Source: Leptolyngbyaceae cyanobacterium
Lineage (GTDB): Bacteria > Cyanobacteriota > Cyanobacteriia > Phormidesmidales > Phormidesmidaceae
Direction: 5' to 3'
Assembly (NCBI GenBank): GCA_050331235.1
Contig: JBHJHA010000027.1
Location: 1 to 64,000 of the forward strand
DNA length: 64,000 nucleotides
Shown: positions 1-54,549 of the stretch, one piece after another
Position numbering within the stretch: the first letter of the stretch is position 1
Layout of the letters: every line of letters starts with the position of its first letter
The notes under the pieces: model-generated
The model's input: the letters and a program-made list of their open reading frames with translations, nothing else
Database searches by the model: none
What the model was told of the DNA's origin: nothing
Made by a program: the position numbers and the translations under genes

Positions 1-1839
1 TTACAAGTGCAGCAACTAACTCGTAAGGAATGTTTTCGGCCAAGCTATTCAAAGAAGCCCTTATAAGCGCATAACGACACTGCAGCGCAATCGCCTGGGC
101 GGGGGATTCTTTATACAGGTCTTTTGCCAGTCGCCAAGCACGCGCTACATCTCCGACAAAGCTAGCTGTTTGTTCTAGGGCAACACAAGCTTTATACCAG
201 CCGTTTCTACCCTCAGGAGTATCCTCTTGCAAGAGCTGATGAATCTGGTCGAACTGCTCCGCCTGCTCCAGGTGCCAAGTCAGGTGAGCATGGATATAGC
301 CATCGTCAGACAAGGTATGCCATTGCTCATCGAGCGTTTTCTCGCGATACCGCTCGATGATTTGCTGATGCGCCTCTGCTCTCGTAAGTCCTAAGCCCGG
401 TAAGTCACTGGCTTGCTCTGGATGTTGGGGACTGGTTAGAAGCTTTTGAGCCAGGTCATGCATCAAGTCATGCATGCGATAGGTGACTCGCTGGCACGAT
501 TGCTGTCCACTTTTCAACAGCAGCGCTTTAGCACTAAAGATCCGCAAAATTGCTCCGGCGGTTCGCTTAGAAACCTGCCAGAGGGTCGTGGCCATTTCTT
601 GGGTCAGAGTGACATCCTCGGGAACTACCCCGAGCCAGGCAAAGTGCCGGAGCTGCTCCGGTGTCAATTGCTTCAGGCTGAGCTTAAAACAGGCCGTCAA
701 GCTGTATTTTCGGCGTTTGGTATCTTCTGGGATGTCATCTTGACTGTATAGATCTAGGGTTTCGAGCCGGGCCACTTCGGTTTTAAAGTCTTCCAGCAGT
801 TCCGTCCAGGTGACGCCTTCCTCAATTTGAGAGGCTGTTAGTTCTAAGGCTAGCGGCAAGTATCCGACTCGCTCAGCAAATAGGAGTGCTTGCTGCTGTT
901 CCTGCTCATCCAGCGCCCTGCCCAGCTTTTGAGTCATCAACGCCAGAGATTGCTCTGGGCTCATCACATCTAGGGGATAGCGACGCGCTTGGGGAATGCG
1001 GGCCTCACGTGTAGTGATTAGTACACAGCAGTTTGAACTGCCAACACGAAATAACTCAGCATGCTCTGGATTCCAGACATCATCTACAACCAGCAGCATT
1101 CGTTTATCTGCTAGCAAAGTTCTGAGATGTGCAGACGCGGCAGTTTCGGTAATGGGTTGATAGCTATGATCGCCAAGGGTTTGAATCCAGTGACTTAAGT
1201 GAGCTAGGATGTCAGGCTGTTGTCCTAATGGAGCCCACAGAACACCGTCACAATATCGGTCTACAACATCTTGGTCATGAGCCAGCTTCATGGCCATTAC
1301 TGATTTTCCAATACCACCTAAGCCATGTATTGCACTTACCACTAACGTGCCAGGGTGGTTGGCTGCATCTTCCAGCAAAATTTTTTTGACCGCATTCTGA
1401 TGCTCAGGTCTCTCAACAAAATGATAAGGCAGGGGTGGCGCTTGAAAAGGCACTCCGACGGGTGGCCTAAACGATTGAGATTGCTGAGACTTAGTTGAGC
1501 TTATGGATGATTCACTCTGATCTGCTATTCCTTGGTAAACATCTAGGACATTGGTACTAGGTAAACCGTAATCAACAGATTCAAGGGTTAACTCAAAAGC
1601 CCGAAACAAGTCTTCGATTTTTGATCTATCTACTCCGGCCTGGGCTTGGCGAATTTTTTTGATGGTTTTAATGCTAAGGTGCGATCGCTCCTCCAGCTCT
1701 GCCTGAGTGAAGCGCTTGCCATCCTTTTCCCGTTCTTGGGCTGCTGCGATCGCGGCTTCTAACCTTTCTTTGCCGTGATTGGTGAGAACAACACCACGTT
1801 GACGCTTGCTTATAGGACTTTGGGGGCAGATGACGACAC
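1..1839 (-). CDS. HTH + NB-ARC (STAND NTPase) protein with APAF-1-like helical region; 3' end lies outside the window
   Basis: Not in the ORF track. Manual translation: KRQRGVVLTNHGKERL..FTQAELEERSHLSIKTIKKI (HTH), IHGLGGIGKS (Walker A), LLVVDDVW (Walker B), VLITTR, GYLPLAL, YRMHDLMHDLA (MHD). Likely GTG start at 1839 is one base out of frame at a C5 run. Confidence 0.88.
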
Positions 1840-2066
1840 AGGAGAATCGGATAGTTAGCGTAAAGTTCTGCGTGCTTGCATCGACTATATTCGATCTTTC
1901 CGGAATGTGTCTAGACGCTGAAACTCATATAAATAGAGCGTTACGTCAGGCACAAAGTAGTCTGTGAAAAGTTTCTAGCAACTTTCGCTTAAGGCACTCA
2001 AGTTTCCTGGTGGAATCGTGGCGGTTTTTCAATACTGGCCTCATGTTCAGCTTTGAGGAAACCGTC

Positions 2067-2453
2067 ATGTTGAAATCAACCGTTTTAGGATTAGGCACGT
2101 TTGCGCTGCTCTCGCCTGTCAGCGCTGCTGTGATGCCGATGGAACTGGCTCAAACACCTCCTGCTCCATTGGTAACTGAGATTTGCGGCGTCGATAAGTC
2201 GTGGACAGCAGGATTTCGCATTGGTGAAACAGTGCCGCTTGATCCTAGCCAGTATCACCGGGCGGTGACGATCACAAAAACACCGCTGCGAGCCGGTTAT
2301 GGCTTTGAGGGACCAGTCATCGCTGACTTGGCAGTGGGGGCTCAAGTCACCGTCATGGGTGAAGTCTGGGATATGGGCTGCAACCAGTGGATGGTTGTCC
2401 CTGCGGACGGGGGAGTCGCCTATATCCATGGCAATGCTTTGCAGAACCTCTAA
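2067..2453 (+). CDS. Secreted protein with bacterial SH3-like domain
   Basis: GAGG RBS before ATG 2067; signal peptide MLKSTVLGLGTFALLSPVSA; LRAGYG..VIADLAVGAQVTV..W..V....VAYIH pattern of SH3b domains. Confidence 0.7.
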   Translation: MLKSTVLGLGTFALLSPVSAAVMPMELAQTPPAPLVTEICGVDKSWTAGFRIGETVPLDPSQYHRAVTITKTPLRAGYGFEGPVIADLAVGAQVTVMGEVWDMGCNQWMVVPADGGVAYIHGNALQNL

Positions 2454-2545
2454 TCCAGATTCATTGGAGGGCATCGACTGTACTGCTCTCCCGACTTTCT
2501 TAAACTAGCGAACCGCTACAGACATCAACTCAAGGGATAAACACC

Positions 2546-2782
2546 ATGATGCGACAACAGCATTCCTATAGTTGGCTCTTTAAGGCAGCCACAATATCGT
2601 TGAAATATTTTTTGCTGGGGTTGGCCGGTTGTACGGTGACGTATGTCTTGGCCCATGTGCTCAGCTTTGGAGGCCTCGCCAGCCTGATGGTCTTGCTGTT
2701 AGAAAAACTGGCGCTGCGGGCGTTGGTGGTGGTGTTTTGCTTGGGGGCGATCGCCGTCATCACCGAATCTCTCCGAAATTAA
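2546..2782 (+). CDS. Small membrane protein
   Basis: 78 aa, two to three hydrophobic helices, AGGGA upstream. Confidence 0.65.
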   Translation: MMRQQHSYSWLFKAATISLKYFLLGLAGCTVTYVLAHVLSFGGLASLMVLLLEKLALRALVVVFCLGAIAVITESLRN

Positions 2783-2831
2783 AGCCCGTTATCTCAGGGG
2801 GCCACCATTGCTGTTCAATTTTAAGGTGCCT

Positions 2832-2999
2832 ATGAATCGCTCACTGCGGCAATATCCCCAAACAGTTAAACTCCTCGTGGTGATTGATTGCGAGAGGCCT
2901 AACCCTCAGTCGTTAGCAAAGCCTGTCCCAACTCGTTCAGCGCCTGATCCAGATCTTGAAGCCCTGTGGCTGTTGGAATTATTAATGCGCCCAGCCTAG
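2832..2999 (+). CDS. Small hypothetical protein
   Basis: AAGG before ATG 2832; follows the previous gene on the same strand. Confidence 0.4.
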   Translation: MNRSLRQYPQTVKLLVVIDCERPNPQSLAKPVPTRSAPDPDLEALWLLELLMRPA

Positions 3000-3142
3000 A
3001 TGCTTGGCCTCAGGTACGAGTCTAGGGAGCAGTGATTGCACGACAAATCGAAGCATCGTTATGTTGGCTGATAAATGTTGAGTTACTGCGGTTTTCAGGA
3101 TTGCGGATGATTCATTGACAGATACTGAGGCCGTAAAATTCT

Positions 3143-3446
3143 TTATTCGTCAGTTTCAAATAAGGCTGTCAAATCTTGATAACCACTGACGACTCGAAAA
3201 ACTTCGATCGCATCATCCAGTAGACGGTAGAAAACCAGGTATTGCTTGTAAGGCAAGCTCCGCAGATTAGGATAGAGTTCATCCCGCTTGCGGCCAATTT
3301 GAGGAAATTGGGCAATCTGCTGGAGTACCGAAAATACCACTTAGGAATGTTTCTGCACGGTCGAGGCCGCTGTCGATGGCGAGGTAGTCTGCAATCTCCT
3401 CAATATCCTGACTGGCGCGAGGGGTGATGCGGCAGACTCGACTCAT
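3143..3446 (-). pseudogene. parE: ParE/RelE family toxin, frameshifted
   Basis: ATG overlaps the antitoxin TGA; MSRVCRITPRASQDIEEIADYLA..RAETFLSG, then a frame change near 3335 into FSVLQQIAQFPQIGRKRDEL..YLVFYR..IEVFRVVSG. Confidence 0.85.
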
Positions 3447-3706
3447 GGTTCAGCGTGGCGGCTGCGAAGACGCTGACGAATGGCGTCAATTTCTGTGGAG
3501 GCTTCTAGCAATTCGCCGCGCTCAGCTTCATTCGCACCCAGCAAGACCTCATCACGCAGTTCTTCGAAACGTCCCTGATAAATCTGCTCACGCTCAGCCA
3601 ATGCTTGCAGTCCTGCCAAGAGGATGTCATCTAGAGAGGCGTATTTGCCGCTAGCAATCTGGCGATCGGCAAACTCTTGTAGTTCGAGGGGAAGGGATAA
3701 AGCCAT
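3443..3706 (-). CDS. parD: ParD-like ribbon-helix-helix antitoxin
   Basis: SLPLELQEFADRQIASGKYASLDDILLAGL motif; directly upstream of parE. Confidence 0.88.
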   Translation of the reverse strand: MALSLPLELQEFADRQIASGKYASLDDILLAGLQALAEREQIYQGRFEELRDEVLLGANEAERGELLEASTEIDAIRQRLRSRHAEP

Positions 3707-3754
3707 CGCTTTGCTAGAAGGGTTTGCTGATATGGATATCAGTTTAGCGTGTAC

Positions 3755-5412
3755 TCAGGAGAGGTTAGATGAGCCAACCTCTCCTGCTGCTGAGCTTTCC
3801 GAAAAGTGGTCAACGGCCCCTAACGCAATCATCGACGCCCGCTGCGCCTCAGTCAGCCCATGTACCCCAGTAATGTCAGTACCTTCATAGGGACGCGGTA
3901 CTGACATAGCTACTTCACATCCCCATGTTTGTACATTCCATAATCGAATTGTGCCGTCATCACCAGCACTACTAAGAATCTGACTGTCAGGGCTAAAAGA
4001 TACTGATCTGACCCCATCAGTATGGCCTTGAAGCATATTGACACATCGTATTTGGCAGATATCCCAAATACGAATGGTTGAGTCTGCACTGCCGCTGACT
4101 AAAAGGCGTCCATCAGGACTGAATGCTACTACCCTCACCCAATTTTAGTGACCCTTGAAAGTTTGGAGACATTGGTGGTTTTTGAGATTCCATATCCGAA
4201 TAGTAGAATCATGACTACCACTTGCAAGAAGCCCATCATCGGGACTAAAATCCACTGATCTATCTTCCTTTAAATGCCTTTCAGAACATTTAGTATTTGA
4301 TGATTTAGCATATCCCACAATCGAATTGTAGAATCATCACTCCCGCTTGCCAAAAGTTGACCATCAGAACTTACAGCTATTGACCAAATCCAGGTAGAAT
4401 GACCTTTCAATAAACTGAGGCAGCAATACTTTTGAGTATCCTATAATCGGATCATAGAGTCATCATTACCACTAACAATAAATTGATTAGATGGATGCCA
4501 AGCCAATGATTTTATGCCATTAATATATCCACTAAAAACATGTAAGCATTGATGTTTTCCTATATCCCAGAGTCGAACTGTAGAGTCCGAGCTTCCACTC
4601 ACGAGGAACTTGTCATCAGGACTAAAAGCAAGCGAATTAACTAAATTGGAGTGCTTGTCAAATACATGGATACATTGTTGCTTTTTTATATCCCAGAGTC
4701 GAATTGTACAATCTGCGCTTCCACTAGCAAGAAACACGCTATTGGAACTAAAAGCCAATGCTCCAACCCGATCAGTATGCTTATCAAATATATGAATACA
4801 TTGCTGCTTCTTTATATCCCAGAGACGTATTGTACAATCGTCACTGCTACTTGCAAGATACTTCCCGTCTGGACTTAATGCCACAACCCAAACCCAATTG
4901 GTATGTTGATTGACTACGTCGCAGCAGCAGCCTTTCTGGATATCCCATAATCGAATTGTATGATCTTCACCACCACTGAAAATGAAAAAGCCATCAGGGC
5001 TAAAGACCACTGATCTTACTCCCTTTATATGTCCTCTAAATGTGTTCTGACATTCAAATTTTTCCATATCCCACAATCGAATTGTAGAATCTGCACTGCA
5101 ACTCACAAGCAAGCGACCGTCAAAATTGAAGGATAGCGATCTAACTTCACCTGTATGCCCTCTAAGAACACAAATACATGAGTATTTTTCTACGTCCCAA
5201 ATTCGGACTGTAGAGTCTGTACTGCCACTAGCAAGGGTTTATTATCAGGGCTAAAACGGACTGATCTCACCCAGTTTTTATGCTCTTTAAAGGTAATCAG
5301 ATGCTGTCTTTTTTTAATGTTCCAAAGCTGTATTTCGCAGTTGGCACCACCTATCGCTAAAAGCTTACCATCAGAGCTATAATCAACTCCGTAAATGCGA
5401 TCAAAAGCCCCT
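3755..5412 (-). pseudogene. WD40 beta-propeller region of an NB-ARC/NACHT-WD40 gene; 5'-truncated and disrupted several times
   Basis: About a dozen GH..WV.SV.FSPDG..LASGS.D.TIRLWD repeats; stops at 4145-4147 and 4441-4443 plus frameshifts; C-terminal RPYEGTDITGVHGLTEAQRASMIALGA typical of cyanobacterial STAND-WD40 proteins. Confidence 0.9.
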
Positions 5413-5413
5413 C

Positions 5414-7015
5414 TTGAATGGTGATCCTATTTTTCGAAAACGAGCTTTAGAAGTCATTGCAAGAGTTGAACTCGGCTCTGAAAGCGTAGTAAATGCAACA
5501 ATTAGAATTACACTTCATGATTCAGATTGGCAAACCAGAAGTAACGCTAACGTCGCTTTGATATCAATCGGTAATTCTGCAGTCGTTCGTGCACTTAGCT
5601 ACATTCTTGAGGAAGATGATTTTGAGATATCAAGATAACTTCCAGTCACACAATAGCAATTGGATGCCTATGCCAGATAAGTAGCAGAGAATCTCTACCG
5701 ACATTGATAAAGGTTCTACTTGACGAAAGCAAGGGCATCGTAATTCGCGGATACGCTATACGAGCTTTAGGTGAAATCGGTGATGCATCTGTAATTCCGG
5801 TACTCATGAAGTATCTTGCACCTGATGAGAGTGATTTTATATATCGCGAGAGTCTCTTTGCTTTAGGAAAACTAGGGTTAACACACCTTGAAGATAAAAT
5901 CATCTCAATTGCCATAAGACACACAGAGCCAGATGTTCGAAAAGATGCTGTAAAGGTTCTAGGGAAAATATTTACTCAGAAATCTCAGCAGGGACTTCAA
6001 GAAGCCCTTAAAGATCCAGATTTCATCGTCCGTTTCACCTCTGCCGTGTTTCTGGCAAAACAAAAACATACAGGAAGTATTCCAACCCTGATTGAAGGCC
6101 TGGGGTGTAGAAGTTCTCTCGGTTTTGAGGACTATACAGTTTGTCGAGATGCTATCGATGCTTTGTATGAGGTAAGTGGAGATGCATATTCATCTTTAGA
6201 GTATGCTTTCAAGCACCATAAGGATTTTCAAGTGAGGCGTAACGCTAAACTAGCTATCGATAAAATCAAAGGCTTACCCACTCAAGAAAATTATGTAGAA
6301 AGGACATTAAAAGAAATTAGCGAAAAATACAATTTTGCTGAATTACTTGAAATTTTGAATATTGCTAATACGGATAATGATTGGCAGTTTGCTTCAGCTC
6401 TTCGGGAAAAATGTGAAGCTGAGCATATGAGTTCTTTATATGAAGCAATCCTGCAATCTGGCTCGAATAGTGTTTTCAAATATGTTCCAAATTTAATTAG
6501 TACAATTCAAACCGATTGTAGGTTTTACAACTACGAGATTGCCTACGACATCATTCCCTAAGGCAAAACAGTTTCCCTCTACTTCTCCTACGCCCCCGCC
6601 GCCGAACCTCTGCAAACCCAACTCACCCTGCTCGAACGCCAGGGCGTCATCACCAGTTGGAGTCAGCGCCAAGTTCTTCCCGGCGACGATCGCGCCCGAG
6701 TCATCAACCAGCAGCTCAATACCGCCGACATCATTCTGCTGCTGATCAGCGCCAACTCCCTCGCCGACAAAACCTGCTACACCCTTGAAATTCAACGGGC
6801 AATCGAACGCCACCAGACAGGCGAGGCTCGCGTCATCCTCATTCTGTTGCGTCCCGTAGATTGGTATGGTGCGCCTTTTAGTCAGCTTGAAGTGTTCCAA
6901 AAACCATCAGCCCATCACTACCTGGGCTAACCAAGACGCAGCATTTCAAGAAATTGCTGAGGGTATTCGAGCAGTCGCGCTTGATTTGCAACAGCGGAAT
7001 CCAACCTCCCCGTGA
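5414..7015 (+). pseudogene. HEAT-repeat + C-terminal TIR protein; 5'-truncated and disrupted
   Basis: HEAT repeats (DVRKDAVKVLG, VRFTSAVFLA); break near 5638; TAA 6559-6561 is followed in frame by SLYFSYA..LERQGVITSW..ADIILLLISAN..CYTLEIQRAIER..VILILLRPVDW; frameshift near 6898; ends TGA 7015. Confidence 0.85.
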
Positions 7016-7156
7016 ATTTCCAGCATCACAAAAGCTCATCCATTGACTGAAGGGCAGCGGTGTTCCACGACGATTCTTCCTCCAGTGGCATCTTGACTCG
7101 CTTTTTGAGCAAAATTGAACTTAAACGTCTTCCTAATCCGTTGAGGCAAAGTATTC

Positions 7157-7642
7157 ATGACTTCTGTCTCCGAAGTGCCCTCACAACTGCGTTCCTACGG
7201 TCACCGTGGAGCCTACAGCGAATTGACTCACTACGCTGATGAGCTGCCCCCTGCGGTTAAACAGACTCCTTTAGTTTCTCTGGAATTGTCGCGGGCTTTT
7301 CTGCGCCAAGGTCGTCCCATTGATGCCGAAGCAGTTCTAACCTCCGCAAATTTGGCAACAGCCACTCCCGGAGCACAGCTGATCTTAGCCCTGGAAAAGG
7401 CCTCTCTGAGCATTTATCGACAGATGGCAATTCAGGCCGCGCTGCAAGCGGCGCAGGCAGCATTTGCCGCAGCAGAAATCCAGACCATTGACCCGGCTGA
7501 TCGCGCCGAAGCCGATCGCGTTCATATCCGCATTCTGTTGACAGCCGCCACCTACTTTGAGATCTCCCCAGAGCAAGGCCAACAGGCACGAGATCGGCTG
7601 CCTGCGATCGCCAAAATCCTGCCCCATACCAAGTATCACTGA
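7157..7642 (+). pseudogene. N-terminal fragment of a helical (TPR-like) protein, probably truncated
   Basis: Ala/Leu-rich amphipathic helices ending abruptly in HTKYH*. Confidence 0.45.
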
Positions 7643-8107
7643 AAGGTGCAGAAAACGGGGGTAGGCAAGAAGCTTGCCCAATGGTAGTTTCGAGAAAATC
7701 TAGACCAACGAGATGGCATTGGTTCAAAACAGGTTGTAACACTCACCTTACCTGCAATTGGCCAGGTGACCGGCACCGTTATTGTGAGTGCTCGTCTGGC
7801 CCAGCCAGGACTGCAAGGTGGGCTTGAAGCTATCCACGATTTGCCCCTGAGGTCTACACCTGAAGAGCGGTTTTACCCCATCGCCTTTGAAATTCCCCAA
7901 GCGTCTAGAGGTGATTTGGCTAGGTTTTTCAGCTTTGTTTGATGCCAACGAGAACGATTTCGGCCCGAGAGTATTCGACAAATGGTCGAGTACTCCTATG
8001 GTGCATCTATGTAGCTCAAGATACCTGTATCTACACCAGTAGTTTCATCAAGCTCATAAAAAATAGCCTGAAACGACGAAATTCCGTTTATCAGGTTGGA
8101 CATTTTA

Positions 8108-8127
8108 TTGGGGTAAATTTGGGGTAA
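8108..8127 (+). repeat. Tandem TTGGGGTAA direct repeats, possible integrase arm-type sites
   Basis: Copies at 8108-8116 and 8119-8127 (11-bp period), about 50 bp from the tRNA fragment. Confidence 0.5.
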
Positions 8128-8175
8128 TTAAATTTTGATGTCACTCAAATTACGTTCCTGCATAAATTGACCACC

Positions 8176-8220
8176 CGATTCGTAATCGAGCGGTCGCGGG
8201 TTCAAATCCCGCCATCGGCT
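8176..8220 (+). tRNA. 3' half of tRNA-Thr(CGT); att-site fragment, not a complete gene
   Basis: CGA-TTCGTAA-TCG anticodon arm (CGT), T arm GCGGG-TTCAAAT-CCCGC, acceptor strand CATCGGC-T; no D arm or 5' acceptor strand upstream. Confidence 0.9.
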
Positions 8221-8440
8221 TAGACGTTTGTAAATTTGTTGTACGTTCGCAAATTATATGTCGCAGTTCGCAGATTGATGTCGCTATTGCAGGAAAAGCG
8301 ACCTTAACCGTGGTCCTTAGCGATTTCATGTCGCAAAATTCAGTTTTCGTGCTCTTTGCAGAATAATGTCGCGAAATCCGTCTTCATTTTCATGCGTGCA
8401 CTTACCTGTCAGCCACACTTAATTGCTAAACACTCTGCTT

Positions 8441-8470
8441 ATTACGAATCGAGTGCTCCTTTCAGCTTCC
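8441..8470 (-). CRISPR. Delocalised homing crRNA: truncated repeat + 18-nt spacer against tRNA-Thr(CGT)
   Basis: Minus strand GGAAGCTGAAAG-GAGCACTCGATTCGTAAT; spacer matches 8169-8186 at 16/18 positions. Confidence 0.85.
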
Positions 8471-8532
8471 TTTTTAAATTTCTGAGTTCTGGCAAAAGTA
8501 AATATCTGGTTTGAGATTGAGACAACATCCTG

Positions 8533-8569
8533 CTCTCAACTCCTCTTCGGATGAAGGAGAGATCGCGAT
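8533..8569 (-). CRISPR. Single 37-nt type V-K-like CRISPR repeat (array remnant)
   Basis: Minus strand ATCGCGATCTCTCCTTCATCCGAAGAGGAGTTGAGAG: 37 nt, internal hairpin, end one base from GTTGAAAG, same orientation as the homing crRNA. Confidence 0.7.
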
Positions 8570-8816
8570 CGCTATAAAAGGTGGTCCTACCTTCAGCCTC
8601 TATGGGTTCAACGATCTAGGCATAACTAGCGATGCTTGGGATACGAAAGGCGTTGCTAAAGGTAATGGCAATGCAGAGCCCGGTTTGCCTAACTTCTCTA
8701 TTTATGTAAAGCGTGGTGATGGTGGTGACAACCCCACTATCCCCGAGCCGGCAGCAATGGCGGGACTATTGGCTGTGGGTGCGGGTATGGTGGCCAGCCG
8801 TCGTAAGCGAGCTTAA
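8565..8816 (+). pseudogene. 5'-truncated PEP-CTERM protein
   Basis: AIAIKGGPTFSLY..IPEPAAMAGLLAVGAGMVASRRKRA; no signal peptide; aligns with the C-terminal half of the neighbouring paralogue. Confidence 0.85.
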
Positions 8817-8918: not shown

Positions 8919-9481
8919 GCTTGCGAATAGAATCGGTGATGTCATGGATGCATTGTTGCTTTTTTCATAAAGGTGATGCGGGATGTCTCGATTAATACCT
9001 CGCCAACAGAGAGCCGATTACTACACGAGGCCGATCGCTTAAGTTTGATGCCAACTTCTCTACAATTAATCTTGATGGTTGCGGACTTCGTGGCAGAGAG
9101 ATTTTGCCGCAGATGTTGCACCTCAGTAAAAGCCGAAACCTCCACCAAATAGAGCTTCAGAGGCCTCTTTAAAAACGGCAATGGCAACCAGCAACAGAGT
9201 TCACATTCACCGATTTTGTATGAAGAGGCAAAAAAGTATCAACATAGACGATTGTTTATTTAAAGTGGTCTAGATAAATTTGGAATGCAAAACAAATGCG
9301 TGCAAGTACTGGCAGAAGTATTTGATACAAGCCCCTTTGCGATGCCTACGTGAATATTGCATGAAGACCCCCACATGCATTCGGATGCTAGGAACGCTGC
9401 CATGTATGTATAAGTGCTTGCCTCTTGGCTAACCAGGAATTGCAAGCACACACGCAACTGTCTCATAGCTCAAGGAAAACA

Positions 9482-10156
9482 ATGAAGAAAGCTTTGTTAA
9501 TTGGATCCCTGCTGCTTGTTAGCTCTGTTGGCATGACTACTCCTGCCCTAGCTCGAAACAACGGCAACAATGGCAATAACGGCAATGATGGTGGTGGTGG
9601 CGGCGGCCAAACGGCTGCTAGCTGTCAGTCTGGTTCTGTACTCCTGGGTACTGCTAGCTACGATGATTGCTTTGGTGCTGAAAACGAAAATGATACCGGC
9701 GCACAAGGGACTCTGCTAGATAACCTAAATGGTGGTGTTTTCGATGGCATTACTGGTAGTGGCGGCGAGTGGTTTATTTTCGGTAAGTCTGATGAAGATA
9801 CTGAGGTAGATGCCGATGAAGGTTCTAACTCAGGTGCTTTCTCAGTTGATTTTTCTGATTTGGACCATGACGTCGATTCAATTGTTGTCAGCCTAAAGGC
9901 AGCCGACTTCTACAGTGCTTACCTATTTGATGGAGCCGGATTCGACTCTGATGATTCAGATTTGGCTAAGCAGTTTGCAGGTACTTTTGACACCTTTGGC
10001 GTCACTAAGAAAGGTGCCGATTTGTCTCACTTGACGATCGCTTACCTCAAGCGTGACGACAACGGTGGCGGTCCCACTCCTGTTCCTGAGCCTGCTGCAA
10101 TGGCTGGCTTGTTGGCAGTTGGTGCGGGTATCGTCATCAACCGTCGCAAGAAGTAA
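9482..10156 (+). CDS. PEP-CTERM sorting domain protein
   Basis: AAGGA RBS; signal peptide MKKALLIGSLLLVSSVGMTTPALA; NNG/Gly low-complexity stretch; VPEP-TM-RRKK tail. Confidence 0.92.
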   Translation: MKKALLIGSLLLVSSVGMTTPALARNNGNNGNNGNDGGGGGGQTAASCQSGSVLLGTASYDDCFGAENENDTGAQGTLLDNLNGGVFDGITGSGGEWFIFGKSDEDTEVDADEGSNSGAFSVDFSDLDHDVDSIVVSLKAADFYSAYLFDGAGFDSDDSDLAKQFAGTFDTFGVTKKGADLSHLTIAYLKRDDNGGGPTPVPEPAAMAGLLAVGAGIVINRRKK

Positions 10157-13677: not shown

Positions 13678-14910
13678 TTATCTAAAGAGAAACAACGACA
13701 GAGGGATCAGCAAAACGAATAAAAGAGAAAAGTAAAATATAGCAGTAGAAGCAAATGCATTCCAATATGGAACATCGTGAATTTTACTCATAATGTTATT
13801 CAGATAAGCGAAAACTCCTCCAACAGCCTAGGATGTCGACAGGTTGCTTGCGTCAAAGAATAGCGAATAAATCCCTTCGAAAATTATGACAATCGGAAAA
13901 AATGTTACAGTGACGTATATTGCAGCAACCAAGCTATGTTTAAATTCACCTTTTCCTCCAATCCATCTGAGAGGATAGTGAAAAAACGGAGTATTGATCA
14001 CTCCTGCCAAAAGCAATGATATAACTCCCATTATTTCATCGATGATATGAATGTCAAACCAGATGGAATCTACATCCAGGAAAGTCGTAGCGATAGTGGT
14101 CAAGAACACTGCGCCGAGCATGTATGTGATTAAACCGGAAGAATTCGATAGGCTTATCTCATCGATCCTAATAAGGTTTGCTAGAATTCTTGGTTTACTG
14201 AGCATTGTATAGCCCCTCCAATACACTCGAAGTGGCTCGAGAACAATCAAAATCGTATCAACGAGAAAACCGAAAGAATTATTCTTTGTAGTGACAGACT
14301 TGGTAGTGGCAGACTCTGACTTAAGATCAACTTGTGCTAGTGACGAATTTATCAGATTGTAGTAAGGAGAAAGACGGCTGGCGAAAACCTTCCTCTCAAA
14401 AGGCGAAATAAATATAGAACGAATGCTTAATACTGAGTTCTTTTTGTCACTATCTTTCATTATTTCCAGTTGACGCGAGGAAGGCTTAGGGATACAAATG
14501 AAAAATAAAATAAATGAGATTTTTACAATGTGTTCTTCAGCTGGATTTTGCTTCATCTCATCCATCTTTAAAAAAACTTTATTTTTCCATGCAACCCATT
14601 TTTCTATGTATCTGAGATCGGCTTCAATTAAACATAGAAACTGAAGGCTTCTTTTTATCCCTGTAGATTCTTCGGACACAAAAATATCTTTAGAATTCTT
14701 TTTTAAATTGCCAAAAAGATCCTGAGGAAATATTGAATCTGCGTCAAAATCAAAAGTTTTTTTGACATTAATTAGCCCTAGATTTTCAAGCTTCTTCGAA
14801 ATTAGTTTATGGATCTGATTGGGTTCCACTTTTAGCTTGTAGGCACAATTACTACAATAGCTTCCTGTGTCTGTGAAGCCACAATTTAAACATAAGAACT
14901 TGAATTCCAT
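13678..14910 (-). pseudogene. AT-rich zinc-ribbon + Yip1-like membrane protein with premature stop
   Basis: CLNCG..YCSNC N-terminus; TM C-terminus; TAG 13828-13830 is followed in frame by AVGGVFAYLNNIMSKIHDVPYWNAFASTAIFYFSLLFVLLIPLSLFLFR*. Confidence 0.6.
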
Positions 14911-38752: not shown

Positions 38753-40417
38753 TCAAGGCAGAAATTCATCTACCGCTGGGGGCAGTTCACGCACTAGGTG
38801 AAAATCGAACGGCGCCTGACTCGTGGTTTCGACGTAGGCCGGGGTCAGGTAGGGCGCAAATTCAGTTTGATCGGCTAGGTAAATTTTGCTGAAGGCCACG
38901 ATTAACGCTTTGTTGAGATTGCGGCTAATCACCATCCCTTCATCAATGCCTTGCTCAAACTGCTGCTCTAAGTTGAAAAGTCGGCTCGTTAGTCCCGTAA
39001 AGCCCGGACTGTGGGAAGTGTTTTCCGCCAGGTAGAGATACTTATCACTCCCGGATAACCAGCTAAAAGTCGTCACCTGCTGGGGCACTACCGGAGCCAA
39101 AATATCAAAGGCTCCACCTTCCATCATGACGGGCACCTGAATTTGGCTGATGCCAGTCTCTCCAAAAATATTGCTCACCGGGGAAAACGCCATAACTAAA
39201 GCAACTCGGCGATCGCGGACGCCCTCAACCCCCAGCTGCTAAACGATCGCGGGGTCATCCTGGAGTTCCAGGGCGCGGCACTCCAGCACCATGGCGGCAT
39301 CGATCACGATGTTGGCATTGGGGTCACAGCGCTCAGTCAAACGAGCAAAATCGATGGTGGCGCCCCCCAAGGCCAAGACGGTATATTCCCCGAAGGAATG
39401 TCCGGCAACAGCCACTTGCTCAAGATTTAGTCGGCCTTGATATTGGGTAGCGTTCAGCCGTTCTAGCTCATCCAGCAGGAAGGTGATATCCAGCGGTCGA
39501 TTGAGAAAGTCGCGGGCATCAAAGTATTCATCGGTGAGCCCCGCAAATAATGCTTGGCGATAGTCCAGGTTGCTCCCGACGTGATCGGGCAGGGCTACGG
39601 CAAAGCCATGGGAAGCGACGTGACGGGCAATGTCAAAAAAACTGCTGCGGGTGTCTCCTAACCCGTGGGAGAGGACCAGCACCGGCCAAGGTTCACGGGC
39701 CGGGTCGACTCGCTGCGGCCAAAACAGCGTTGCGGGATAGGTGCGATCGCCCCGGGCCGCATCTTGCAGGGTAAGGTCTTGCTGCTGTACGGAGTAGGGG
39801 CCCGGTTGAATGAGGTCGGGTCGCCCGGAAAGATCGGGTAGGGGATTGGCGGCCGCTGCCGTCTGGGAAGCTTGCTTGACCGCTTCTACTACCGCAAGGG
39901 CGCGATCGGCCTCGGCAATCACTTCCCGCGTACTGCGAATTAGCAACGGGAGGTCAACGCGCAGCACCTCAGTGGGATAGTGGCGCATGATATCGAGCGC
40001 CGATGTTTGGCCATCTTCGGCCGCTGCACTGATAATGGCTGCGCGCAACGCCATTTGACCGTTGAGCCGCGCCCCAGTAGGAAATAAGCGCCCGACAAAC
40101 TGTAACGTGCGCTCGCCCATGGGAGCGTAATACCAGCGAGACAGGGCGACTACATCGGCTTCCCGCTCAGCGGTGAGTGCCTGACGCAAGTCAGCCTGGC
40201 GCTCCGGACTCAACCGAGATAAAAACTGCGCTAGGTCTGAAGTTTCGTCCCCTTGTTCGGCATAGGCGGTGAGGTCATCAACTGCAACTGAGCGGCTAAA
40301 GGGACCAAAATCGAAGACAACTGTTTCCGCGGCGGCAGTTGGCAGTGCCCCGAGGGCGATCGCGGTCAGCCCACCAAGGAAGGCACTGACTTCTTGCCGC
40401 GTCAATGATCTAGGCAT
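38753..40417 (-). pseudogene. DUF1400 + alpha/beta hydrolase, split by one in-frame TAG
   Basis: DDPAIV*QLGVEGVRDRRVALVMAFSP reads through 39239-39241 into ORF 38753-39193; SHGLG and GHSFG motifs. Confidence 0.85.
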
Positions 40418-52800: not shown

Positions 52801-54549
52801 CTTGAGGAGTCGGGCATGTTCAGCCTGCTCTTCTAGTAAATTGCCTCGACGCCCCAACTGCATTTCTAGCGACATGACCAGGCGCTCACGCAGGGGATCG
52901 ATGGGCGGATTAGTTACCTGGGCAAACCGCTGCTTAAAGTAGTCGTACAGCAAGTGGGCCTTCGTCGACAGGACCGCCAGGGGAATATCATCTCCCATGC
53001 AGTAGGTCGGCTCTTTACCCTGAGCCGCCATATCTTGAATGATCATTTCGACATCTTCTGCTGTGTAGCCAAACGCGGTCTGCTGCTGCATCAGCGTGGC
53101 CCCTTTACAGATCGTCCCCTCCGCAAACATTTGTGGCTGAATCGCTTTGCGGTACTGATTCAGCCACTCGCCGTAGGGCGCTTGGTGGGCAACCCGCTGC
53201 TTGATATCCCAATTCTTGAGAATCTCATGGGTCTCGAAGTCGACAGCGATCATTTGCCCAGGCCCCAGACGGCCTTTTTCGACAATGCTGTCAACGGGCA
53301 CATCGACTACCCCAGCCTCCGAAGAAACAATGATCAAACCGTCGGAAGTGATAATGTAGCGAGCGGGTCTTAGGCCGTTGCGATCAAGGGCAGCTGCCAC
53401 CTGCTTACCATCGCCAAAGGCAATCAGGGCTGGACCATCCCAGGGCTCTTGTAAACCTGAATAAAAGTCGTAGAAGTCAGTAATTTCCGGATGCTGTTCT
53501 AGCGCTGGCTGATTGCGGTAGGCCTCTGGCACCATAATCATGAGCGCTTCCAAAGGAGTTCGGCCTGATCGCACTAGAAGCTCCATGACGCCATCCAGGT
53601 TGGCCGAGTCGCTATTGTCCATATTGACAATTGGCAACAGCTCTTCAACATGTCCCTTCCAGATGGGATGGGCTAAGTCGGCCTCGCGGGCCTTCATCCA
53701 GTTGATGTTGCCCACAAGGGTATTGATTTCACCATTGTGACCCACCAGTCGCATTGGGTGAGCGAGGGGCCACTTGGGCATGGTGTTAGTGCTGAAGCGT
53801 CGATGGTAGATTGCGAAGGGACTAACGTAATCGGCGTTTTGCAGGTCTAGGTAAAACTGGCTCAACACCTCAGAGCGCACCATCCCCTTGTAAACAATAG
53901 TCCGCGCCGAAAAAGAGCAGATGTAAGTTTCTCTCAGTGGCTGGGCTAGGGCATCGTCTCCGGACCAACTCACTTGGGCCCGATAGATCCGTCGCCGCAG
54001 GCGATACAATTCCCGCTCCAGCTCATCCCCACTGGCATGCTTAGCCTGGACTAAAAACTGCTCGATGCGAGGCCGATTTTGCTGGGCCAGGGGACCTAGC
54101 ACCTCGGGCTGCACCGGTACCTCACGCCAGCCGAGGACCGCAAACCCCTCTGCTTCTGCTGCATTGGCAAACAAATCACGGGCGATCGCCGCGGCCTCGT
54201 CTGCCAGTGGCAAAAAGACCATCGCCACACCGGTATGGTCAGACACTAACTCCGTGTCAATGCCGCTGGCCGTAGCCCAGTCTTGCAGCACCCGCCAGGG
54301 AATCGCCGTCATTACGCCAGCCCCGTCACCCGAATCTTTATCCGCACAGCAGCCCCCGCGATGCTCCATGCAGTTCAAGGCATCGAGTGCCTGTTGTACT
54401 AACTTAAAGCTGGCCCGCCCCTGCTGATCGGCAACAAACCCAACACCACAGGCGTCACGTTCTTCGACAATCGCGCGCGGCCCCCACTGGAGCATGCTGT
54501 AATCCATCGACTGATTGGACTGGTTTAAATTCAACGGTGTGTTTCCCAT
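49873..54549 (-). CDS. glsF: Glutamate synthase, ferredoxin-dependent type
   Basis: [40 protein letters not shown] domain; no small subunit adjacent. Confidence 0.95.

Follow-up and report, generated by a model that had tools for sequence, protein, structure and literature searches.

A tRNA-Thr(CGT) homing unit in a type V-K CAST left end of a Leptolyngbyaceae cyanobacterium, most likely the relic of a once-guided transposon

A truncated CRISPR repeat followed by a 17-nt spacer that matches tRNA-Thr(CGT) was found in a type V-K CAST left end in the genome of a Leptolyngbyaceae cyanobacterium. We are highly confident in the reading that this unit likely guided a transposon here and is now most likely a dead relic. 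The DNA analyzed, referred to as the window, is a stretch of 64,000 nucleotides from contig C27 of a 4.8-Mb assembly (G000) that comprises 118 contigs and is 95.5% complete. The following features of the window are relevant to the argument.

8442..8458, minus strand: homing (anchor) spacer of 17 nt; the exact match to tRNA-Thr(CGT) extends one base more, to 8441.
8459..8470, minus strand: truncated repeat R* of ~12 nt, ending in GAAAG; its 5' half departs from the form in complete relatives.
8240..8372, plus strand: type V-K CAST left end, with terminal TGTAC and three TnsB-site-like repeats.
8246-8264, 8267-8284, and 8355-8372, plus strand: the TnsB-site-like repeats of the left end.
8235..8239, plus strand: candidate left copy of a 5-bp target-site duplication; the partner copy at a right end was not found.
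8176..8221, plus strand: 46-nt duplicate of the tRNA-Thr(CGT) 3' part; attachment-site core, putative attR of an integrase element.
8108..8127, plus strand: 9-nt repeat in tandem, an arrangement shared with a single other place in the genome; likely an integrase arm-type site.
8544..8816, plus strand: 5'-truncated host gene with a tail that we take to be PEP-CTERM-like, recognized by identity to the 3' parts of relatives' genes; latest possible limit of CAST DNA.

Judged by its sequence, the site is a homing unit of the published type V-K truncated repeat-spacer kind, also termed anchor or delocalized, and this identification is supported by several lines of evidence. On the minus strand, the repeat end TGAAAG at 8464-8459 is followed by 18 bases at 8458-8441, as quoted in a sequence-only reading of the window that preceded this work. 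This 18-mer occurs twice in the assembly, once in the window and once in the intact tRNA-Thr(CGT) gene at C20:c2602-2673, where positions 21 to 38 are identical to the guide (18/18), identity ending at base 19. The sequence-only reading had expected an exact match behind a GTN in the intact gene and was to fall if either were missing; since GTA occupies the PAM position before the matched bases, it stands on this point. Its remark that the guide restores the CTCGA anticodon stem also proved correct, the intact tRNA carrying CTCGA and the fragment in the window CCCGA. When all 5305 genomic TGAAAG and TGAAAC sites were considered, two preceded an exact 14-mer of any of the 36 called tRNAs, namely, the site in the window and one within tRNA-Ser itself (naive expectation, 0.04). 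A looser match, with up to two mismatches in 17 nt, yielded one extra site genome-wide, which is the homing unit of another CAST on contig C37. The last 8 nt of R* equal the array-repeat end in four related loci (L054, L060, L104, and L110).

Homing of V-K CASTs by a delocalized crRNA was reportedly described by Saito et al. in 2021. The sequence-only reading had likewise stated that these elements home by means of a truncated repeat with a short spacer outside the array, and the same anatomy is present in published work (PMC9938897) and in relatives with arrays, tracrRNA, and cas12k. According to Ziemann et al. (PMC9938897), a 17-nt anchor spacer lies behind a ~12-nt truncated repeat, towards the left end, and its target has a GTN PAM 46 to 82 nt from that end. 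Homing units were noted in essentially all of 282 elements, covering at least 15 tRNA types, and loss of tns genes was read as decay (Hsieh and Peters, bioRxiv 10.1101/2021.02.06.429022). The review PMC11406308 and PMC11656645 give the same account of V-K homing units. An R-loop of 17 bp (Schmitz et al., PMC9798831) explains the 17-nt length of the spacer. The tracrRNA has two anti-repeats, one of them at its 3' end (PMC12416283). No copy of the spacer in the window was found in the eight supplements of PMC9938897, which list proteins and positions, and tRNA-Thr is not mentioned in the portion of PMC9881144 consulted. Our literature search returned no paper on a tRNA-Thr target of V-K elements or on remnant left ends; tRNA-Thr may well be included in the att-site table of Hsieh and Peters or in Saito et al. 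(2021).

The first 25 nt of the left end match, at 92% identity, an end that adjoins tnsB in the complete tRNA-Thr CAST of genome G046, and the left end as a whole can be aligned with related left ends. The unit reads towards this end at 8240, with the spacer start 219 nt away from it. If the fragment at 8176-8221 is taken as the original 3' part of the tRNA, the PAM-to-end distance is 71 nt, which is within the published 46 to 82 nt and is the longest among the 11 loci measured (54 to 70 nt in the others). All testable sequence features of a V-K homing unit are found together: the short repeat, a 17- to 18-nt match, a GTN PAM, the orientation, and the PAM-to-end spacing.

A search for the partner of the candidate target-site duplication gave 11 genomic places with the expected five bases before TGTAC or TGTAT, none of which has TnsB-site repeats in the next 60 nt. 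Because the duplication could not be paired, it is only the geometry that points to transposition into this exact site. It should be noted that the five bases outside the two ends of the complete reference element in G046 form no duplication either, so the right end assigned to it may belong to a neighboring or rearranged element. A TnsB-site weight matrix built from 12 training sites with fixed spacing detected no cluster anywhere in the genome; as it recovered only one of the three known sites of the left end in the window, this was a weak test. At 8227-8239, the pentamer that precedes the left end is also present 8 nt earlier, the PAM-to-end spacing exceeds that of nine relatives by 7 to 17 nt, and in L104 the first five bases of the left end are doubled. 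Such features may be traces left by several insertions into one site.

The sequence-only reading spoke of an adjacent tRNA; what adjoins the unit is only the 46-nt duplicate at 8176-8221, and ARAGORN called no tRNA in the window. Upstream of the duplicate, at 8166-8175, ATT occupies the PAM position, and the first seven protospacer bases include two differences. The tandem 9-nt repeat occurs at 8108 in the window and at C20:2483 beside an integrase and nowhere else in the genome. On C20, the gene beside the intact tRNA encodes an Arm DNA-binding domain and has a sub-threshold phage-integrase match. Islands carried by tRNA-targeting tyrosine integrases leave the 3' part of the tRNA duplicated as attL and attR. 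It is thus likely that a single integrase element in tRNA-Thr has one arm at positions 1 to 8175 of the window and the other at 1 to 2600 of C20, although the two contigs are not joined, and the 46-nt duplicate was likely left when this element entered the same tRNA. The left end stands beside such an att fragment in 4 of 11 loci with a tRNA-Thr neighbor, this locus being one of them. Gene order around the locus is poorly kept across the genus, and a synteny comparison over 12 stretches from same-genus genomes did not identify the native neighbor of tRNA-Thr. The part of the window assigned to the integrase arm has a lower GC content at 4 to 7 kb and contains broken WD40-repeat genes and a HEAT-repeat gene. 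An integrase stretch of 96% identity is located beside the tRNA-Thr of G011.

The rest of the element is missing from the assembly. Within ~75 bases of R*, the DNA turns into the truncated host gene at 8544..8816. Compared with the 3' parts of its counterparts in G008 and G010, it is 40 to 58% identical, and compared with a paralogue at 9425-10156, 42%; it has an in-frame stop upstream and matched no Pfam family; the genes downstream of it form a host chromosome block in same-genus genomes. In three runs from one study, including what may be the source sample, single contigs continue from the left end through the spacer into the host fragment, so an assembly artifact is unlikely. No CAST gene was present among 50 open reading frames of the window that were scanned, and no array, tracrRNA, cas12k, tns genes, or matching right end was found near the unit. 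Among the families listed by a repeat finder for positions 1 to 30000, none was a CRISPR array, and a loose V-K repeat pattern returned four scattered single matches genome-wide, none near the unit. A repeat-like stretch near 8530-8570 falls within the host gene fragment and was discarded as chance. Rfam at gathering thresholds gave no match in the window, and folding of the minus strand from 8400 to 8520 revealed no structure (z, 0.25). As an observation apart, a 360-amino-acid open reading frame without a Pfam family lies at 13828-14910 in a patch of 36% GC.

Genome-wide, Cas12k matches were confined to C37, as was the single significant tracrRNA hit. TnsB genes exist only on C82 and C37, their products being 41% and 35% identical to TnsB of G046 and associated with other end sequences. 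A right end of the type expected for the window was not found in the genome by blastn, motif, or flank search. At the window, neither cas12k, tracrRNA, and array nor tnsB-tnsC-tniQ with a matching right end, as expected of a complete type V-K CAST, is present. Since the rest of the element is absent from the assembly, the guide is probably idle. The sequence-only reading had called the site a homing crRNA targeting tRNA-Thr; the marks of a homing unit bear this out, and because the unit is stranded in this genome without machinery, the targeting applies to a likely past.

The remaining CASTs of this genome were considered as sources of the missing parts. The tns operon of C82 was rejected as partner of the left end in the window due to its other end sequence and other flank, and the element on C37 was rejected because it has two ends and a duplication of its own that delimit it. 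The latter (G000:C37:38700-54314) is a second V-K CAST, located at tRNA-Met(CAT), with its right end at 39187, its left end at 54211, and a 5-bp duplication. It contains tnsB, tnsC (with a stop), tniQ, cargo, cas12k, tracrRNA, and a one-repeat array ending in GAAAC. Its homing spacer has one mismatch, and the PAM, 47 to 48 nt from the end, is TTC; shifting the spacer start back by one base would make it GTT. Eleven nucleotides beyond the right end lie an older left end and a cas12k 3' fragment (81% identical), a tandem insertion. The third tnsB-tnsC-tniQ operon, at G000:C82:1777-5310, has a right end at 5309 and no cas12k on its contig; its cargo side is cut by an insertion-sequence-like stretch near the contig start.

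Related loci were searched for with an exact 20-nt pattern composed of the repeat end and 14 spacer bases, which returned nine loci in a species-level genome set and seven in metagenomes. L104 to L107 represent one locus and were counted once, L108 repeats L053, and L109, a 14-nt match with no left end and no tRNA, was dropped as probable chance, leaving 11 distinct loci besides the window. In all 11, a left end follows 152 to 233 nt downstream of the unit. A tRNA-Thr or its fragment lies just outside in 10 (intact with GTA in seven, an att-type fragment in three), with PAM-to-end spacings of 54, 56, 57, 58, 59, 59, 60, 62, 64, and 70 nt. The guide match is 15 to 20 nt long, and exactly 17 in five loci. 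cas12k is present in 4 of the 11 and tracrRNA in 6, two of those six reaching the contig edge before cas12k; the other five have neither, and two of these are covered for only 0.5 to 1 kb upstream. In complete relatives, tracrRNA and array are situated within ~1.5 kb upstream of the short repeat. An alignment of the window with six of the 11 loci shows the spacer plus TGAAAG as the sole long invariant block, which is partly by construction of the search. Among 13 same-genus genomes, only G008, which was not counted in addition to the 11 loci, has the unit; it shows a similar integrase-element arm, a spacing of 54 nt, and an insertion-sequence-like frame directly behind the repeat.

Several observations were made alongside. 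At L056:6001-6170, a left end and a tRNA-Thr homing unit occur with no adjacent tRNA-Thr and no cas12k or tracrRNA within 6 kb, representing either an off-site insertion or a moved relic. The same left-end type is found at L044:8506 (G033) behind a different tRNA-like 3' end, Pro by manual reading, and at L013:1559 (G019) as a ~45-nt stub behind tRNA-Thr.

We propose that Cas12k, tracrRNA, and a short crRNA of ~30 nt would have bound GTA and tRNA bases 21 to 37, and that TniQ, TnsC, and TnsB would have placed the element 71 nt beyond the PAM, with its left end leading. A tyrosine-integrase element would have entered the same tRNA, so that the intact gene was retained on the distal side of the integrase element (C20) and the CAST was left next to a 46-nt copy that lacks the PAM. 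A deletion or rearrangement would have taken everything from just upstream of R*, namely, array, tracrRNA, cas12k, cargo, tns genes, and right end, and joined the CAST stub to the middle of a host gene. The order given here for integrase entry and deletion is tentative. That the spacer is still perfect counts against a long-dead relic; a recent loss would explain it too.

The best surviving alternative, to which we give only a slim chance, is that the element is split rather than dead, the rest of the CAST having been relocated by a rearrangement to another part of the chromosome that is missing from the assembly, where a cognate Cas12k and tracrRNA could still load the guide. With 95.5% completeness in 118 contigs, missing CAST parts could indeed be unassembled, and the poorly kept gene order of the genus and the intact spacer and left end agree with this. 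However, the 4.8 Mb yielded no cognate right end, tnsB, cas12k, or tracrRNA. Moreover, a broken host gene lies where relatives carry tracrRNA and array, so the presumed usual source of the transcript upstream of R* is gone.

It is slightly less probable still, and improbable in itself, that the orphan guide is used in trans by Cas12k and tracrRNA of C37 or by an incoming CAST, with a second homing site at tRNA-Thr. The perfect spacer and the intact target with PAM on C20, free of CAST, are in line with such use, and the tracrRNA region of C37 has CTTTC, presumably the first anti-repeat, which is complementary to GAAAG of the repeat. Pairing of the short repeat does not favor it. Duplexes were predicted between the 12 nt before GAAAG and the 3' ends of seven tracrRNAs, six from relatives and one from C37. 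Cognate pairs gave -14.1 to -16.9 kcal/mol in the six relatives and -16.4 kcal/mol on C37, and pairing was weaker across groups. R* of the window reached -3.1 to -4.9 kcal/mol with the seven 3' ends (-3.4 kcal/mol with that of C37), its own tracrRNA being lost and possibly different. In addition, Cas12k of C37 (38% identical to the G046 protein) is interrupted by a stop before the end of the family model. No sigma-70-like promoter was found within 700 nt upstream of the unit, the sole site detected (9242, minus strand) being at chance level. Finally, no CAST end lies downstream of the intact tRNA-Thr on C20.

A further-reaching version is regarded as equally improbable: the unit would have been retained as an independent guide whose transcript is still made and is loaded in trans by a different or an incoming Cas12k, steering foreign CASTs to tRNA-Thr. 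If it were true, tRNA-Thr would have been re-opened by an integrase element that separated the intact PAM and target from the earlier insertion, and the site would be a non-autonomous guide donor, with mobile elements of two kinds alternating at a single tRNA.

The weak predicted pairing of R* is not general to orphans, since the short repeats of two others, L056 and L057, still pair at about -14 kcal/mol with a relative's tracrRNA. Either R* has changed by drift, or the tracrRNA that it once had was a different one. In two runs (X1 and X3) of the same study, a second allele or strain shares 8433-8521 with 7 to 11 differences but is unlike the window in the ~200-nt stretch that separates the spacer from the tRNA end. 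Among five of its 11 differences, four fall at 8468-8475, where by eye they make the repeat more like that of complete systems, a thin hint that R* drifted. In six relatives (L053, L058, L059, L060, L104, and L110), short repeat and tracrRNA 3' anti-repeat covary in two groups, GGGTT with AACCC and GGACT with AGTCC. In L058, the tracrRNA is by eye a better fit to the short repeat than to the array repeats, and the tracrRNAs of these six loci look longer than that of C37.

There is hardly any probability that the 18-mer is a tRNA scrap from integrase events or a product of chance rather than a spacer: this tRNA is an integration hotspot with att-type fragments in several relatives, but those are the 3' part in direct orientation while the 18-mer is inverted, begins exactly after GTN, and lies behind a V-K repeat end inside a left end, chance is countered by the expectation of 0.04, and a scrap is refuted by the finding that the spacer keeps its place behind V-K arrays in L058, L060, L104, and L110.

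As the probable relic of a guided transposon, the site in the window is one more natural example of known V-K homing, and the general understanding of that process is unchanged by it or by its relatives. It suggests that a left end and guide can outlast the rest of an element, and surveys based on cas12k would not see such remnants. Of more use is a side product of the search, the complete tRNA-Thr(CGT)-homing systems with longer tracrRNAs and covarying short repeat and anti-repeat.

Three known systems can be compared with the site. Tyrosine-integrase islands resemble it in the duplicated 46-nt core, the integrase-like gene at the intact tRNA, and the tandem arm-like repeats at both ends; however, they account for the fragment at 8176-8221 only and not for the inverted spacer. 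The cyanobacterial V-K CASTs ShCAST and AnCAST differ from the window in that it has no upstream array, tracrRNA, or cas12k, the 5' half of R* is predicted to pair poorly with the seven tracrRNA ends tested, and the neighboring target copy is a PAM-less att duplicate, with the intact tRNA on another contig. They share with it a repeat of ~12 to 13 nt ending in GAAA(G/C), a 17-nt spacer directed towards the left end, and a protospacer in a tRNA gene behind GTN with a PAM-to-end distance within 46 to 82 nt. The third group comprises the complete tRNA-Thr(CGT)-homing V-K CASTs detected in this work in other cyanobacteria (L058/G046, L110, L104, and L053). Unlike the window, these keep cas12k, tracrRNA, and array, and the predicted duplex between short repeat and cognate tracrRNA amounts to -14 to -16 kcal/mol; their spacing is 57 to 70 nt. 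Spacer start, TGAAAG, left-end type, and tRNA are the same in these systems and in the window.
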